A DNA stretch of 64,000 nt from Candidatus Poribacteria bacterium (lineage in GTDB: Bacteria > Poribacteria > WGA-4E > PCPOR2b): assembly GCA_965116925.1 (NCBI GenBank), contig OZ220744.1, forward strand, positions 3,936,001 to 4,000,000, given 5' to 3'. The notes beneath the pieces were generated by a model. That model saw only the letters and a list, made by a program, of their open reading frames with translations, had not been told where the DNA came from and did not search any database. The translations under genes and the position numbers were made by a program. Positions 35,375 through 46,440 of the stretch are shown here, one piece after another (the stretch's first letter is position 1; every line of letters begins with the position of its first letter).

Positions 35375-37342
35375 TCAGATGAATCGATAGGTTGCCTGAC
35401 CCAAAATTGTTCCAATCACACCCCAGAAACTTGCGGTCACAAACTCTCCCAAAACGAGACCGATAAAAAACGCGCTTGCCTGTCGATATAACTTGAGCCC
35501 ACCGAATCGAAGGATGATTAATTTTGCCAACCAGCTCAGGAAAATTGAGAACCATAAGAGATTGAGCGACCATGTCCCACCAATCACGTATCCCGCCGGA
35601 TGAAAGGGCCACCAGATAAAAAGCCTTCGCATCATCAGAAACCCTAGTCCGATACCGAATCCACCACCCATAAAAATTAGTGATTTGACATCCGTTCCCC
35701 GCGGATAGCTTAACCAGTTTTGTAAACGGTTAAAGATGGGCCAACCGGGCCACGTACTCCCTTGATATTGATAGGCGGTGTGTAGGTACGCCCAACAAGC
35801 AGCGATAGATCCAACCACCGTGGCAATCAGAATACCTGCGATTAGCATCCCGTTGATGGAGAGATTCATCCGATCTGCAAGCCGAAATGCTTCCAATTGA
35901 TGCGGCTGGGGGTTGCTACGATGGGCATAAGTGAAAAAATGGAGATAGGAGAATAGTGTAAGACTTGTGGGACCAACCGCTTGTGTACCGAACCCTGTCA
36001 CGACAATGTCCTCGGGTCGGAACGCAAAATCGTGCATCGGGTAGCCTGCCTCGACCCGGATGCGTGTCACAACCGTTGAAAGCCCAAAGAAGATTAGGAA
36101 AAAGACCGCCGACACCCACACGGACATCCCCGCAACGTAGCAGAATCCGATGAGATAGCTTACGCTCGCGAAAATGCTAAAAACTGCCCAGCGATAACGT
36201 CGCATCTCCGCCCGATTCTCCAGAATCTCGCGTCGTTGATCTCCAGTGCTTTGGGCGGTGGTAGGCATTCTAAAAAAGCTCCGTAGAATTTCCCGCCCGG
36301 TAAATCGCAGCCCCCACAATGTCATAACTAAAATTGCCGCACAAGTGCCGATGGATTGTTCCCATGTAAAGGGGAACCCGGCTAACATGCTGCCGCCGGA
36401 GAAGACTGTTCCCACTACCCGCTCCAGCCGCCAAAGCCAGTAGAAAAACCAACAAGAGAAAGAGAGATCCAACGGCATAAAGAATGCCAATCCGATTGCA
36501 AATGGGTGAAACTCAATCGGAATCCAACCGAGTGCGTTCCATGGCTTCGCGGTAAAATACTGACTCAGCAGGTAGCGTCCATAAAAGAGACTTGGGGCGA
36601 CGGGGAATAGGGTGTGAATGCCGTTAATCACGTTGAATGCCACGGACAGGGCAAACCCAGTCCAGATCAGGCGTGTTTTGAAGAGGCGAGGACCGTTGTT
36701 GATAATATCTAGCGGTATTTGCGCGAGGGGATAGGTGAGACGCTCATGGACTGTCCAGTGTTTACGCACTAGGAGGTTAATGCCCAGCATACAAATCAAC
36801 AGCGCGATAATAACGGTACACCATGCGAGGCACGGCACTAGCCACGCATTGAAGTATTCGGCAACGTAAAAGGTGTTGTCATAAAATGTGCCGCGGTCTT
36901 TGTAATAGCCAGCCAATATCGATTTTTCTGTGACAACAAGCCAACGTGGCACATAACGATGGAAGAGCTCCTGCCATTCATTCTCAGGTGCGGCGAAATA
37001 GAATGCGTGCCCAATGAGTGGGAACAGTCGCTGGATCATGTCGTGCCCTGCGATGGCTGACGAGACGCACAGCATCACATAGATTAACACCATATCGCTT
37101 GAGTCCAGCGCGAACCTCGGAACATAACGCTTGAGCCACGGATTGATCAGACTCAAGACGAAGATGAGGAAGATCGCGTTCATGAACAGCGATACCCGCG
37201 TGAAGTTCACGCCGTGTCCTGTGATGCCGGTGTCAACGACCCAAAGGCTGTTGAGCGGCAGAACTACGAGACCGATGAAAAGCAGCTTGCAAATCTGGGC
37301 GGTTAGATTCGGTTTGGCTGGATGGCTTGGTGTGGGGTGCAC
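35375..37342 (-). CDS. DUF6785/DUF6784-like putative transporter (paralog 4)
   Basis: ERLTYP, RIRVEAG, PQPHQLE, WWPFHPAGY. Confidence 0.85.
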   Translation of the reverse strand: MHPTPSHPAKPNLTAQICKLLFIGLVVLPLNSLWVVDTGITGHGVNFTRVSLFMNAIFLIFVLSLINPWLKRYVPRFALDSSDMVLIYVMLCVSSAIAGHDMIQRLFPLIGHAFYFAAPENEWQELFHRYVPRWLVVTEKSILAGYYKDRGTFYDNTFYVAEYFNAWLVPCLAWCTVIIALLICMLGINLLVRKHWTVHERLTYPLAQIPLDIINNGPRLFKTRLIWTGFALSVAFNVINGIHTLFPVAPSLFYGRYLLSQYFTAKPWNALGWIPIEFHPFAIGLAFFMPLDLSFSCWFFYWLWRLERVVGTVFSGGSMLAGFPFTWEQSIGTCAAILVMTLWGLRFTGREILRSFFRMPTTAQSTGDQRREILENRAEMRRYRWAVFSIFASVSYLIGFCYVAGMSVWVSAVFFLIFFGLSTVVTRIRVEAGYPMHDFAFRPEDIVVTGFGTQAVGPTSLTLFSYLHFFTYAHRSNPQPHQLEAFRLADRMNLSINGMLIAGILIATVVGSIAACWAYLHTAYQYQGSTWPGWPIFNRLQNWLSYPRGTDVKSLIFMGGGFGIGLGFLMMRRLFIWWPFHPAGYVIGGTWSLNLLWFSIFLSWLAKLIILRFGGLKLYRQASAFFIGLVLGEFVTASFWGVIGTILGQATYRFI

Positions 37343-38663: not shown

Positions 38664-40628
38664 TCACTGTACTGTCCAGAACCACACGACATACATCGGT
38701 GTCTCTAAAATTACACCTAGGATAGCCCAATAGCTGCCACTCACCACATCGCCCAAAACCAACCCTAGGAAGAAGGGTAACACACGTCGATAGAGACGCG
38801 CTCCACCATATTTGAGTATGACGAACTTGGCGATTGAGGAGAGGATTAACACAAGCCAGAATTGATCTAGCGTTCCACCGTTGATGCCTATCACATAGCC
38901 GACTGGGTGGAAGGGCCACCAGATAAACTTGAGTCGCATAATACCGAGAAATATCGTAAATAGGAATGATAGACCGATGACCATAGATCCGAAAACATCT
39001 GTTGGTCGAGGATACTGCAGCCAGCCAGCCAATCGGTTGTAAACCCCCCAGCCGGGTCCCAAAATCATTCCCGCCTTGCTGCCTCCATGCGTATACAAGA
39101 CATAAAGGTACATCAGAAATGCCGAGAAAACACCTATCACAATCGAAAAGAGCATCACCCACAACAGTTTGCGATGATTCATGCCGGTGCGTTGCGCCAG
39201 TTTAAAGCCTTCAAGTTGATGCGGCATAGGTTGGCTGCGATTTTGGCTGTTAAACCACGAAAAAAGCGAGAACATAACAAGGTTACCACGCCCGAATGGA
39301 CGGATCCCAAATACGGTTGTCAAAGCGGTCTGTGGATTGACGCCAGCCATGTCGTGGGCGGGTGGTCCAAGTTCAGCGCGGACACGAGTCACAGATGCTG
39401 TAATCATCATGTATAGTCCGAAAAATAGCACAAATACCCACATGGACATCCCCGCTTGATTGCAGATTAGATAGAGGAGGACGAGACAGATTACAATCCC
39501 TAATGCTGCCGATCGATAGCGCGTCGGTTCCGTCGAATCGTCAATAGATGTGGTCATGCCAAGGATCCGTTTACCAACCTCTCGAAAATGTTGTCGTCCT
39601 GCCCACATTGCTATCACCACAACCGCTAGTGCCGCGCCCATTGCTTGGTTCGGTTGAAAAGGATAGTAAGGAATTGTATACCATCCAGCCGCCTTTCCTC
39701 CAATGTATTGCGCTTTGCGGACCCAATAGAAAAACGCTGTTGAAAAACTCACATCCAGTGGCAAAAGGAAGCATAAGCCGATAAAAAACAGGCGCAGGTG
39801 AAAGAAAGTTGGTCCAATCGCATCCCACGGCTCCTCGTTAAGCCACCGCGAGATATCCGCACTCTCCTCGCGAATCGGTATCATTGGGAAAGACGGATAA
39901 AGGAAGTTGATTCCGTTGATAATTTCAATGCCTGCTGCAATCGTGAACCCTAACCACATGCCTCGGTTTCGGAAGAGCTCCATTCCAGGCGCAGTCATAT
40001 CGAGTGGCAGTTGGGTAATTGGATATGGCAGTTTTTCATGCTCAATCCATTGGCGTCGGAGCAGGACATTTACGAAGGCGACGAGCGCGAAAATCAGGGA
40101 GGAGATGATTGTCCAACTCATGATAGGAACAATCCAGTAGCGCAGATAACCTTCGGTGAAGAAATTAGCGCCTCCTTCATAAAAAGGGCGGGCGATGGTT
40201 GTGTTACCCATGACGAGCCAACTCGGAAGGTAAGGCTGGAGAATCTGTTTCCATTCGTTTTCGGGGGTGGCAAACCAGAAAGCGTGGCAGAGGGGTCCCA
40301 TGAGCCCGACCATGTTATCGTGGGCAACCACAGCGGTGACACATGCCAACATGACATAGATGACGAGGAGTTCAATTTGGCTCAACGCATACGCAGGAAA
40401 GAATCGTTGGGCGATGTAGTTCAGGAGTGCCAGCACGAAAATGATGAAAATGACATTCATCGGGATAGAGGTTGCGGAGAAATGAAATCCGTGCCAGAGC
40501 ATCTCTTCCATTCCGATCCAGTAGGCATTAATCGGCATAAGGATGCAACCCAAGATCACAGAGCGTAAGGTAATACGTGACCGGGAAGGTTGAAATGTAG
40601 AGGGAGAGGCTGGCATCGCTTCGTTCAT
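38664..40628 (-). CDS. DUF6785/DUF6784-like putative transporter (paralog 5)
   Basis: EKLPYP, RVRAELG, PMPHQLE, WWPFHPVGY. Confidence 0.85.
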   Translation of the reverse strand: MNEAMPASPSTFQPSRSRITLRSVILGCILMPINAYWIGMEEMLWHGFHFSATSIPMNVIFIIFVLALLNYIAQRFFPAYALSQIELLVIYVMLACVTAVVAHDNMVGLMGPLCHAFWFATPENEWKQILQPYLPSWLVMGNTTIARPFYEGGANFFTEGYLRYWIVPIMSWTIISSLIFALVAFVNVLLRRQWIEHEKLPYPITQLPLDMTAPGMELFRNRGMWLGFTIAAGIEIINGINFLYPSFPMIPIREESADISRWLNEEPWDAIGPTFFHLRLFFIGLCFLLPLDVSFSTAFFYWVRKAQYIGGKAAGWYTIPYYPFQPNQAMGAALAVVVIAMWAGRQHFREVGKRILGMTTSIDDSTEPTRYRSAALGIVICLVLLYLICNQAGMSMWVFVLFFGLYMMITASVTRVRAELGPPAHDMAGVNPQTALTTVFGIRPFGRGNLVMFSLFSWFNSQNRSQPMPHQLEGFKLAQRTGMNHRKLLWVMLFSIVIGVFSAFLMYLYVLYTHGGSKAGMILGPGWGVYNRLAGWLQYPRPTDVFGSMVIGLSFLFTIFLGIMRLKFIWWPFHPVGYVIGINGGTLDQFWLVLILSSIAKFVILKYGGARLYRRVLPFFLGLVLGDVVSGSYWAILGVILETPMYVVWFWTVQ

Positions 40629-44378: not shown

Positions 44379-44621
44379 CTACTCAAGGGCTTCTTCTACG
44401 TCCTCTGGTAGAGTAACGGTGCTTGGATCTACATCAATTGGATATTCGGTGCCGTAGGCTTCGACAAGTTCGTCAAATGTTGCGTTATCCACGTTCTCTA
44501 GTTCTCCACCGGGGCGATTGAGAAAAACGCCTTGACAGCCATCACAACTCATCAGATCCACATCCGACCGTTCGATCGGAAATTGCGTAAGTGGATTATT
44601 ACAACCTGGACAAGGGAGCAT
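44379..44621 (-). CDS. Small zinc-ribbon (zf-TFIIB-like) protein
   Basis: CPGC ... CDGCQGVFL...GELE; RBS AAGGA. Confidence 0.75.
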   Translation of the reverse strand: MLPCPGCNNPLTQFPIERSDVDLMSCDGCQGVFLNRPGGELENVDNATFDELVEAYGTEYPIDVDPSTVTLPEDVEEALE

Positions 44622-44681
44622 AAATTAGATCCTTTCAAATAAAAGGTTTGCGTAGCGCGAAGTTACTTACGTTTTATTTTT

Positions 44682-44772
44682 CGCTCATGTTAAGATTTAG
44701 TGCAAAGAAACCGAGTTTTCAAGAAAAAACTCGGTTTCTCTTCGTGCTTTGCACTTTCTTTTAATAGAAGCC
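44682..44772. mobile_element. MITE family B (inverted)
   Basis: Near reverse complement of 20596..20686; 8-bp direct repeat TTATTTTT. Confidence 0.8.
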
Positions 44773-44779
44773 TTATTTT

Positions 44780-45976
44780 TTAGTCGGCAGCGGTTGCGAG
44801 TGGTTCGGAATGATCCAATTCGCAAAATTCGACGTAATCACTAATGAGTTCGGTAATCGTGGGTGCTTCACCACAGATCGGGCAGTTTTTATCCCGACTC
44901 ACCTTCAACTCACGAAACTTCATGCTGAGCGCATCATACATCATCAAGCGGCCGATCAGCGGTTCGCCAACGTCGAGCAGCAGTTTGACCGCTTCAGTTG
45001 CCATCACAAGCCCAACAGTGCCTGGGAGCACGCCCAGGACGCCAGCCTCGTTTCAGCCAGGGACCATGCCGGGCGGCGGTGGGGTTGGATACATGCACCG
45101 ATAGCACGGTCCATCGTGTGGCTTGAGGACGGTTGCCTGCCCTTCAAATTGGAAAATACTGCCGTGTACAATGGGTGTGTTTGTCAGCACTGCGGCATCG
45201 TTGACTAGATAGCGTGTTGCGAAATTATCGCAGCCATCAACGACCAAGTCGTACTCATTAAAGAGATCGATGATGTTGTCTTCTGACAGTCGCATATTGT
45301 AGGGAACAATATTGACATCAGGGTTCAGGAAAGTCATTGTTTCAGCTGCGGATTCTGCCTTCGGTTTGCCAACAGTTTCCGTGCGATGTAGGATTTGTCG
45401 CTGTAGATTGCTTAACTCAACGACATCTGAATCAACCACGCCGAGCGTGCCAACGCCTGTCGCTGCAAGGTATAATCCTGCCGGTGAACCTAAACCGCCT
45501 GCTCCAACGAGTAGCACTTTAGCGTCTAGCAGCTTCGACTGTCCCCTTTCGCCGACTTCAGTCAACATAAAGTGGCGGCTGTACCGCTCCAACTGATCCG
45601 GCGTCATCTGCTTATCTTTGGCTGTTGGGAGTCCTGACGCTGACCAGTCTCGATATCCACCCGCCATGGATACGGAATCCGCGTATCCCAATTCTCTTAG
45701 GGATTTGGCGGCGAGCAAGGATCTCATTCCCGCAGCACAATAGACGATTACTCTCTTGTCCCGATTTGGCACTTCGTCTTCGATCGAGAATTCGAGCATT
45801 CCTCGCGTGACATGAACCGCATCAGGGATATATCCTGCGCGATATTCGTCCTCATCACGGACATCAAGCAGCACAACATCATCTCCACCTTCCGCTTTCT
45901 CTTTCTGAGCTTCTTCAACAGAAACCTCTGGGATCTCTTTTTTTACTTCTTCGATAATTTGGCTTGTGGATTTCAA
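44780..45976 (-). CDS. moeB: Rhodanese-MoeB/ThiF fusion, probable selenoprotein (TGA codon 308 at 45055-45053)
   Basis: LDVRD..EY..G.IP, YCAAGMRS, RYSRH, VGAGGLGSP, SNLQRQ, PCYRC, VPG-TGA-NEAGVLGVLPG in frame, CPICG; 398 aa with readthrough. Confidence 0.88.
45018..45040 (-). promoter_or_regulatory. Candidate bacterial SECIS element
   Basis: GUCCUGGG-CGUGCU-CCCAGGCAC; apical loop starts 20 nt after UGA with G in second position. Confidence 0.65.
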
Positions 45977-45996
45977 TGCAATTCACCTCATTTGTT

Positions 45997-46098
45997 TATA
46001 GTAGATTTTAGAATTAATAGGACACGCCAAACCAGCGCGGTTACAAACCGCACCTACCGGGGGGCGCAAGTGTTTCTTTATTTTTTGAATTCACTATA
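45997..46098. mobile_element. MITE family A
   Basis: Family A ends; core GCGCGGTTACAAACCGCACCTACC. Confidence 0.8.
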
Positions 46099-46099
46099 A

Positions 46100-46286
46100 T
46101 AACCTAAGTTGCTAGTTGCGTTACGATACCACATACATGTCGCCCCGCTGGGGCTTTAAGGCTGGTTTTATCCTGTTTTCTATACACATGTCGCCCCGCT
46201 GGGGCTATGAGTCGGGCAAGATGCCCGACCTACGGATATTGGGAGTCGCCTTTTACTGCGTCGCATATAACTAGCAACTTGCGTTA
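46100..46286. mobile_element. MITE-like element (family D)
   Basis: TAACCTAAGTTGCTAG...CTAGCAACTTGCGTTA enclosing ACATGTCGCCCCGCTGGGGCT twice and TCGGGCAAGATGCCCGACCTAC; eroded relative near 54594..54657. Confidence 0.7.
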
Positions 46287-46440
46287 TAATAGAATACGGC
46301 ACTCTGAAATTGTGTTGGTGATGGGAACCCAATTTTTTACAACTTCCATTATATCACAAGCGGATGGTGCTGTCAAAACTAAATTGAGATGTGATATACT
46401 TGTTCATATTTCGTTGTTCGACAAGCATATCTGAGAATCT

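Follow-up and report, generated by a model that had tools for sequence, protein, structure and literature searches.

A rhodanese-MoeB gene with an in-frame UGA

The window analysed here is a 64,000-nt stretch of a Candidatus Poribacteria genome (G000; 6.47 Mb in one contig, 99% complete). It contains a gene for a fused rhodanese-MoeB protein whose reading frame holds a single UGA. The first-pass annotation had joined two open reading frames around this TGA without naming a strand. Both of them (45976-45053, 307 aa, ending in PPPGMVPG-TGA, and 45031-44780, 83 aa) indeed share one frame, on the minus strand, and the plus frame across the same coordinates is full of stops. Translation with TGA as selenocysteine (Sec, U) yields the 398-aa chain that had been proposed, with one U at position 308 (PPPGMVPG-U-NEAGVLGVLPG) and the rhodanese motif YCAAGMRS at Cys80. 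The locus has the following features:

46348..46376, minus strand: predicted promoter, a full match to the sigma-70-like consensus TTGACA-17-TG-TATAAT, ~370 nt before the start codon
45984..45989, minus strand: Shine-Dalgarno-like sequence GAGGTG, 7 nt before the TTG start, with a presumed function
44780..45976, minus strand: rhodanese-MoeB selenoprotein gene, 398 aa, with TTG start, TAA stop and a single in-frame UGA
45638..45916, minus strand: N-terminal rhodanese domain, aa 21-113 (PF00581, E 3.4e-19)
45737..45739, minus strand: Cys80 in the rhodanese active loop CAAGMR, a predicted persulfide site by analogy with Uba4 C397 (available text of PMC6007339)
44879..45583, minus strand: ThiF/MoeB adenylation domain, aa 132-366, spanning the UGA (PF00899, E 1.8e-84)
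45053..45055, minus strand: UGA, predicted Sec308 of the crossover loop, on the column of the ThiF/MoeB/Uba4 cysteines
44822..44824, minus strand: tail Cys385 (DYVEFC), aligning weakly (3.7 bits) with C. thermophilum Uba4 Cys305
44379..44621, minus strand: downstream 80-aa zinc-ribbon gene (PF13453, E 1.8e-8)

The adenylation domain carries the GAGGLG loop, SNLQRQ, DGCDN and two zinc pairs (C291/C294 and C365/C368). Among NCBIfam models, the protein scores 536.6 bits over residues 5-386 against NF006444 (PRK08762; cut-off 449), 401.7 against the MoeZ model NF005902, below its cut-off of 647, and below cut-off against TIGR02355 and TIGR02356 (E. coli-type MoeB and ThiF). An alignment-based structure model (pLDDT 87.5) matches MoeB 1jw9, ThiF 1zud and Uba4 6yub, with a TM of ~0.93-0.95 on the target against E. 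coli MoeB/ThiF. The least certain internal part of this model is the crossover loop (pLDDT ~58-68 at residues 301-320). The position of the start codon is common to 98 Poribacteria orthologs (ATG in 79/98, TTG in 19/98), and Cys80 is kept in all 98 and in 119 of the 120 best protein matches.

The zinc-ribbon gene, also reported by the first-pass annotation, is a frequent neighbour, found in 55 of 99 Poribacteria loci (some of which represent one genome twice), and any functional link is putative; an Atlas look-up of it returned unnamed clusters alone. The intergenic flanks (44630-44770 and 45980-46260) hold short high-copy repeats, with a contig depth that exceeds the gene's by a factor of tens to hundreds, and a direct repeat lies near 46130-46205 in the upstream flank. 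Elsewhere in the window, two similar membrane proteins of 654-655 aa (35375-37342 and 38664-40628) alternate with PhyH-type dioxygenase genes, and the second of them carries DUF6785/DUF6784.

Conservation of the UGA across Poribacteria

We searched 151 genomes of the phylum, 140 of them from the window's order (G numbers other than G000 denote these genomes). A full-length ortholog was found in 136 of the 140, and each of the 136 has exactly one TGA. One further genome (G134) has a partial ortholog at a contig end with the TGA present, and no ortholog match was obtained in G082, G131 and G146 (92, 88 and 73% complete). The 11 genomes from outside the order gave no rhodanese-MoeB fusion, although nine of them have selA. 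The TGA is not specific to this strain: it stands at codon 308 in 98/98 distinct coding sequences (from 127 loci) at identities down to ~61%, the genomes being kin and the counts thus not independent. The part of the protein behind it is also conserved, with a mean identity to the query of 72% after the TGA versus 80% before it, and with the second zinc CxxC pair, which follows the TGA, kept in 96 of the 98 orthologs.

We compared the site with three matching public sequencing runs, which are contigs and carry neither RNA strand nor RNA level. A contig piece of run X2, which may share its source with the genome, is identical to 44981-45172 (0 differences), and there is no TGC or TGT at 45053-45055. 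One contig of the RNA-library run X6 spans 44738-46018 with 54 differences. Among the 40 differences listed of 216 in the public-run contigs, none falls on the three letters of the codon.

Chance does not account for a TGA at codon 308 in every ortholog, nor for the freeze of codons 313-319 (see below), and the UGA almost certainly encodes selenocysteine. It is scarcely credible that the TGA is instead a true stop (in a pseudogene, a split gene or through a sequencing error) or a Trp or Gly codon of another code. Catalogues do list the product as 306-307 aa in 20 of the best 120 protein matches, but a true stop disagrees with an invariant codon followed by a conserved downstream half, an error with the exact match of the public contig, and another code both with the use of TGA as terminal stop in several orthologs and with the fact that the sole tRNA with a UCA anticodon is tRNA-Sec. 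The catalogued form is deprived of the nucleophile and of half of the zinc site; because catalogues stop at the UGA, an enzyme that is functional in most Poribacteria enters them as defective.

A SECIS element and a freeze of synonymous codons

The first-pass annotation had also pointed to a SECIS-like hairpin behind the UGA. We assessed it by folding and by comparison with the published bSECIS criteria.

45021..45038, minus strand: SECIS upper stem-loop CCUGGG-CGUGCU-CCCAGG, its loop beginning 20 nt after the UGA
45006..45051, minus strand: extended lower SECIS helix, variable among orthologs; whole fold -23.3 kcal/mol

The bSECIS model, in the available text of PMC13188914, asks for a loop of 3-9 nt, a stem of 4-16 bp, a G in position 1-2, a spacing of 16-37 nt and an MFE of -7.5 or lower. 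The hairpin agrees with it in its 6-nt loop with G at position 2 followed by U, its 6-bp upper stem, its spacing and its folding energy. The stem and its distance stood as annotated, but the hairpin is not persuasive by itself. Its z score is -2.1 (5 of 200 shuffled sequences fold equally well), and random synonymous recoding of the same peptide (20,000 draws) places a stem of at least 6 bp there in 17-21% of cases and of at least 5 bp in 43-51%, and we thus rejected the hairpin alone as proof of Sec.

What makes it convincing is the behaviour of silent sites across species. We compared 148 conserved degenerate codon sites, whose median entropy is 1.7 bits; of the eight that vary least, seven are codons 313-319. 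G315 is GGC and V316 is GTG in all 98 orthologs. In 16 non-Sec paralog loci these codons are free to vary. The stem has 6 bp in 93 orthologs and 5 bp in four, and is broken in one. This silent-site freeze is strong evidence, at the level of sequence, for a SECIS element under selection beyond that on the protein.

Selenocysteine machinery and other candidate selenoproteins

All four genes that the first-pass annotation had named for a search, selA, selB, selC and selD, are present in the genome. The genes selA (E 1e-159), selB and tRNA-Sec (76.6 bits, anticodon UCA) are clustered at G000:2373929-2377500, and selD, at 6018631, has an in-frame TGA of its own and a SECIS loop of the AGUU type. 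Among the 136 genomes with the Sec fusion selA was found in 132, and the four misses are fragmented drafts.

A scan of G000 that combined coding potential with hairpins gave 161 read-through candidates. Among the matches listed (90 of 161) we picked 14 by eye, and in 14/14 the family match spans the TGA. Loci L334-L343, L346 and L347 hold FdhA, SelD, SelW-like, AhpD-like, DUF3179, HMA, two thioredoxin-like, three Prx-like and Uma2 proteins, of which the Uma2 candidate (L339) may be a decayed copy. Directly upstream of selD, L344 (G000:C1:6017161-6018270) is a candidate selenoprotein gene of the cobalamin-independent methionine-synthase-like type (PF01717), with an in-frame TGA in H-L-U-R-G-N at a probable zinc-ligand column. 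At another locus, L345 (G000:C1:4898550-4898804), the in-frame TGA falls within the DUF5069 domain (Y-P-U-P) of a protein of 84 aa. The main text of a 2026 selenoprotein review (PMC13188914) does not contain 'methionine synthase', PF01717, DUF5069 or PF16798. A strict genome scan for the CGUGCU-type loop motif gave 12 candidates, and among the eight listed the MoeB gene alone was convincing. Judged from these genes, the host appears to use Sec widely, and Poribacteria look selenoprotein-rich.

Sec and Cys forms beyond Poribacteria

Sec-MoeB had been predicted from metagenomes before, as the first-pass annotation rightly stated. According to the available text of these sources, Zhang, Fomenko and Gladyshev predicted a Sec-containing 'molybdopterin biosynthesis MoeB protein' from the Sargasso Sea in 2005 (11 sequences; PMC1088965), the GOS survey of 2008 reported 19 sequences (PMC2398784), and two reviews (PMC9312934, PMC13188914) list the family without a motif, with MBT7809913.1 as representative. 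Poribacteria have 0 mentions in the available text of the two reviews, and, judged by their titles and the opening of their abstracts, none of the papers found in a literature search on Poribacteria and selenocysteine concerns this gene. The annotation's remark that no function had been characterised also agrees with our search, whose coverage excludes most subscription journals and which found no experiment or functional study on any Sec-MoeB. The present gene is a real selenoprotein gene and a further member of the family catalogued since 2005, not a new class. This analysis adds the interleaving of Sec and Cys forms on the tree, an operon of CysO-NIL, Mec and CysK genes with a second Sec sulfurtransferase in one metagenomic lineage, and the loss of a tail cysteine in most Poribacteria copies.

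A pattern search with the TGA fixed found at least 120 metagenome loci with a G+C content of 41-76%, a sample that is not unbiased, the pattern itself selecting for the peptide. Among the matches listed, the rhodanese Cys motif is present in 48/48 loci with enough upstream sequence, and 76/76 distinct downstream sequences keep a stem of 5 bp or more whose loop lies equally far from the TGA. Two loop registers occur among these 76: 53 have the 6-nt CGUGCU loop and 21 a 7-nt AGUU-type loop with a shifted 3' arm, with two others. The best 120 protein matches have Cys on the Sec column in 99 cases; 20 end just before the column, and one is an artefactual duplication. The nearest Cys homologs, known from protein sequences and not from their DNA, are 57-64% identical to the query.

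We built a tree from 32 rows hand-chosen from 187, masking the Sec column and the 11 residues that follow it. Sec forms fall into four groups, and one clade holds both Sec and Cys members. The hypothesis that all Sec forms belong to one clade is rejected (AU p 0.0012). This 32-row tree requires five or more Sec/Cys changes; because it has no firm root, gain and loss of Sec are indistinguishable on it. Two short members of Cys clusters, P0253 and P0274, were rejected as Sec truncations, their tails being frameshifted. P0179 looks chimeric. No Sec/Cys polymorphism within clusters is therefore claimed, and the final tree omits P0005, which shares its source with P0179. Since Cys forms are common and interleaved with Sec forms, selenium is not required for the chemistry.

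Sulfur carriers, partner genes and a second E1

The first-pass annotation had seen no carrier gene next to the fusion and knew of no characterised partner, and locally this stands. The open reading frames of the window include no ThiS/MoaD/CysO gene, and 99 Poribacteria loci of ~10 kb (some being one genome twice) have no carrier, MoaE, ThiG, Mec or CysK gene. It does not extend to the rest of the genome, which has four ThiS-family carrier genes (G000:187800, 1807991, 2322687 and 4443895), none adjoining the Sec fusion, nor to relatives with a CysO-type operon (below). Three of the four carriers have tails that would need trimming. One of the four, CysO-like, lies within cysK-cysH-cysO-mec-NIL; the others are found in moaD-moaE, in thiO-thiS upstream of a ThiG-like gene, and as a MoaD-like gene after a xanthine-dehydrogenase-type gene. 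The gene names given here are based on Pfam matches or on likeness.

Full MoeB-type E1s in G000 number two, the Sec fusion and a Cys paralog, a 268-aa enzyme without rhodanese that is encoded downstream of a sulfite reductase-TusA gene. Its locus (L319, G000:C1:1459468-1466363) is a cluster in which the paralog is joined by the sulfite reductase-TusA fusion and by a gene for a 193-aa protein that has no name, with small genes inserted; G063 has the same order without the inserts. The paralog groups (100/98) with an E1 whose gene stands immediately after the cysO ortholog in 5/5 genomes of the sister family f5. Because the Cys paralog is thus an ortholog of a cysO-linked E1, the Sec fusion is pointed towards MoaD and ThiS. 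This assignment by elimination is weakened by G052 and G063, where a modABC-moaD-linked E1 is retained in addition to the Sec fusion. A clean split of the carriers between two E1s also disagrees with G108, a single incomplete genome (94% complete), in which four carriers are found but no ThiF-family match other than the Sec fusion. A third ThiF match in G000 was rejected as MoeB, being an E2-E1 fusion beside a JAB-like gene: L034 (G000:C1:5154730-5157080) holds a 616-aa E2-like/ThiF fusion and then the JAB-like gene. We take this locus to resemble Cap2/Cap3-type defence genes.

In one low-G+C metagenomic lineage the Sec fusion lies in an operon of the order rrf2-thrC-cysO/NIL-(Sec rhodanese-moeB)-(Sec sulfurtransferase)-mec-cysK. 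Among the 80 metagenome loci listed, neighbours include CysO in 5, NIL in 7, Mec in 8 and CysK in 6. The host is uncertain, one neighbour cluster of this lineage including both Thermodesulfobacteriota and Aminicenantes records. In at least nine loci the sulfurtransferase gene has an in-frame TGA at the active-site position, followed by a hairpin, ~1120-1130 nt after the MoeB TGA. The product, a second selenoprotein candidate, is a tandem-rhodanese sulfurtransferase with the motif Y-U-[HQ]-S-G-V-R-S, an N-terminal hydrophobic segment and the loop AGUUUG.

Loci with the Sec sulfurtransferase candidate: L170, L172, L175, L176, L177, L194, L225, L234, L239

In Poribacteria, Sec-MoeB is divergently adjacent to selA in 4/99 loci (L083 and L135, both G027, and L112 and L120), two of which are one genome.

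These neighbourhoods bear on the idea that the enzyme loads selenium on a carrier, as a selenocarboxylate, for a route to a Se-cofactor or a Se-amino acid. The two adjoining selenoproteins in the CysO-type operon of one lineage, the divergent selA genes and the MoaD-like gene behind the xanthine-dehydrogenase-type gene of G000 would all suit such a role. We nevertheless find it very improbable: every copy has a Cys as the donor residue of its rhodanese, catalysis does not normally use up a Sec, the selA adjacency is limited to few genomes, and no paper was found that joins 'selenocarboxylate' and 'sulfur carrier protein'.

A possible role for Sec308 in carrier activation

The column of U308 is occupied by a cysteine in MoeB (TCVEAG), in ThiF (NCRTAG) and in C. 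thermophilum Uba4 (SCGEAG); the last is at chain position 200 and is taken as the Cys202 of the papers. The role of this crossover-loop cysteine in prokaryotic E1-like enzymes is disputed. According to the available text of the papers, the Uba4 cysteine forms a thioester with Urm1 and in this way connects adenylation with the persulfide of the rhodanese domain (PMC6007339, PMC11662940), its thioester role in hand-over is also given in PMC7527816, and C225A or C397A abolishes thiocarboxylation (PMC6007339, PMC11662940). E. coli MoeB/MoaD, by contrast, is stated to use no thioester (introduction of PMC6007339), and the matching site of archaeal UbaA is reported not to be a thioester site (PMC6007339). 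That Sec is fixed at this position with a frozen SECIS argues that the residue is reactive in this subfamily.

We propose that the UGA is read through by SelB and tRNA-Sec at the bacterial SECIS, giving one intact rhodanese-E1 fusion. As its intact motifs and fold suggest, the MoeB domain would adenylate the C-terminal Gly-Gly of a carrier. By homology with the thioester of Uba4 Cys202/Cys225, Sec308 would attack the acyl-adenylate, so that the carrier is held as an acyl-selenoester. Transfer of the acyl group to the persulfide on Cys80 in the rhodanese domain would follow, and reduction would release the thiocarboxylate. Clients would most likely be several of the four carriers of G000, MoaD and ThiS first by elimination and CysO possibly. 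Selenium may provide faster capture or easier reversal after oxidation, and would be catalytic and not transferred. By analogy with Uba4, we regard this scheme, from adenylation of ThiS/MoaD/CysO-type carriers through the acyl-selenoester and the hand-over to Cys80 to thiocarboxylate release with several clients, as fairly probable. The hand-over geometry of the relay stays conjectural, the domain order being reversed relative to Uba4/MoeZ. The rhodanese-less Cys paralog keeps the same Cys, so the Sec/Cys residue is not tied to fusions. The wider view of a Sec-nucleophile E1 as general carrier activator throughout the order, relaying an acyl-selenoester to a persulfide in the same chain and repeatedly swapped for a Cys form elsewhere, is more tentative, and we would give it slightly less than an even chance. 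Our literature search found no E1-like enzyme with an acyl-carrying Sec.

It is possible, although we consider it rather unlikely, that Sec308 is a resolving or protective residue that reduces the acyl-disulfide between carrier and rhodanese, or blocks oxidative self-conjugation, and in doing so replaces a second cysteine. In the available text, Cys202 of Uba4 is also described as guarding the enzyme from oxidant-driven self-conjugation and as being in communication with Cys305 (PMC7527816), and the cysteine that cleaves the Uba4 acyl-disulfide has yet to be identified (PMC11662940). A tail cysteine is present in 99/99 Cys homologs versus 23/98 Poribacteria Sec forms. However, other Sec lineages keep it (84/86 high-GC Sec loci among the matches listed), and so does the query with its Cys385, most Poribacteria orthologs having lost theirs; the alignment of the query with Cys305 is weak. 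The same Uba4 residue is moreover the shown thioester site, and both roles are compatible.

A different concern is that Sec308 has no chemical importance, the UGA giving a dependence on selenium or being a near-neutral Cys-to-Sec swap in a selenoprotein-rich genome. Cys187 of E. coli MoeB is dispensable. Nine rhodanese-less E1 genes of Poribacteria, all but one of them belonging to genomes beyond the order, lack a Cys on the Sec column, and adenylation alone therefore does not need the Cys. The repeated Sec/Cys alternations on the tree, the ease with which the peptide GVLGVLPG forms a hairpin and the many other Sec candidates in the genome point the same way. Against this, no Cys, Ser or other codon replaces the TGA in any of the 98 orthologs and the SECIS is frozen; a near-neutral swap is disfavoured because a reversion would be expected somewhere in 136 genomes. 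Overall we judge an unimportant Sec308 quite unlikely. In two genomes (L300 in G002 and L301 in G004) the sole MoeB found has Pro or Asp on the column, with the flanking motif kept.

If the acyl-selenoester relay is true, a selenoester E1 would tie the synthesis of molybdopterin, thiamine and cysteine to selenium supply across an order of sponge symbionts. The question is open to direct test, since close relatives provide natural pairs of Sec and Cys forms and one operon points to a particular carrier (CysO-NIL).

Comparison with known systems

The Sec-MoeB family shares with our protein the ThiF/MoeB domain (COG0476/PF00899), one Sec on a Cys column and a bacterial SECIS. Its published text and tables, in the parts available, give no Sec motif, rhodanese fusion, partner or Poribacteria. 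PRK08762/NF006444 has the same architecture, with an N-terminal rhodanese and its active Cys, and differs by the Sec in the crossover loop. E. coli MoeB and ThiF are ~42% identical, have the same fold and carry Cys on the Sec column, but have no rhodanese domain.

Mycobacterial MoeZR resembles the present protein in being an E1-rhodanese fusion with several carriers encoded at a distance, and serves MoaD and CysO in a system that also includes CysM and Mec (available text of PMC3227635). Its domain order is reversed, and G000 differs in having a second, Cys E1.

Uba4/MOCS3, acting on Urm1, likewise combines adenylation and rhodanese in one chain, with a nucleophile on the same column and two zinc CxxC pairs. 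The crossover nucleophile and rhodanese Cys that mark MoeZ, Uba4 and MOCS3 are both present here, as U308 and Cys80. The rhodanese, which is C-terminal in those proteins, is at aa 21-113 in ours, and its loop reads CAAGMR instead of the CRYGND of Uba4/MOCS3. The nucleophile is Cys there and Sec here, and the carriers here are bacterial.
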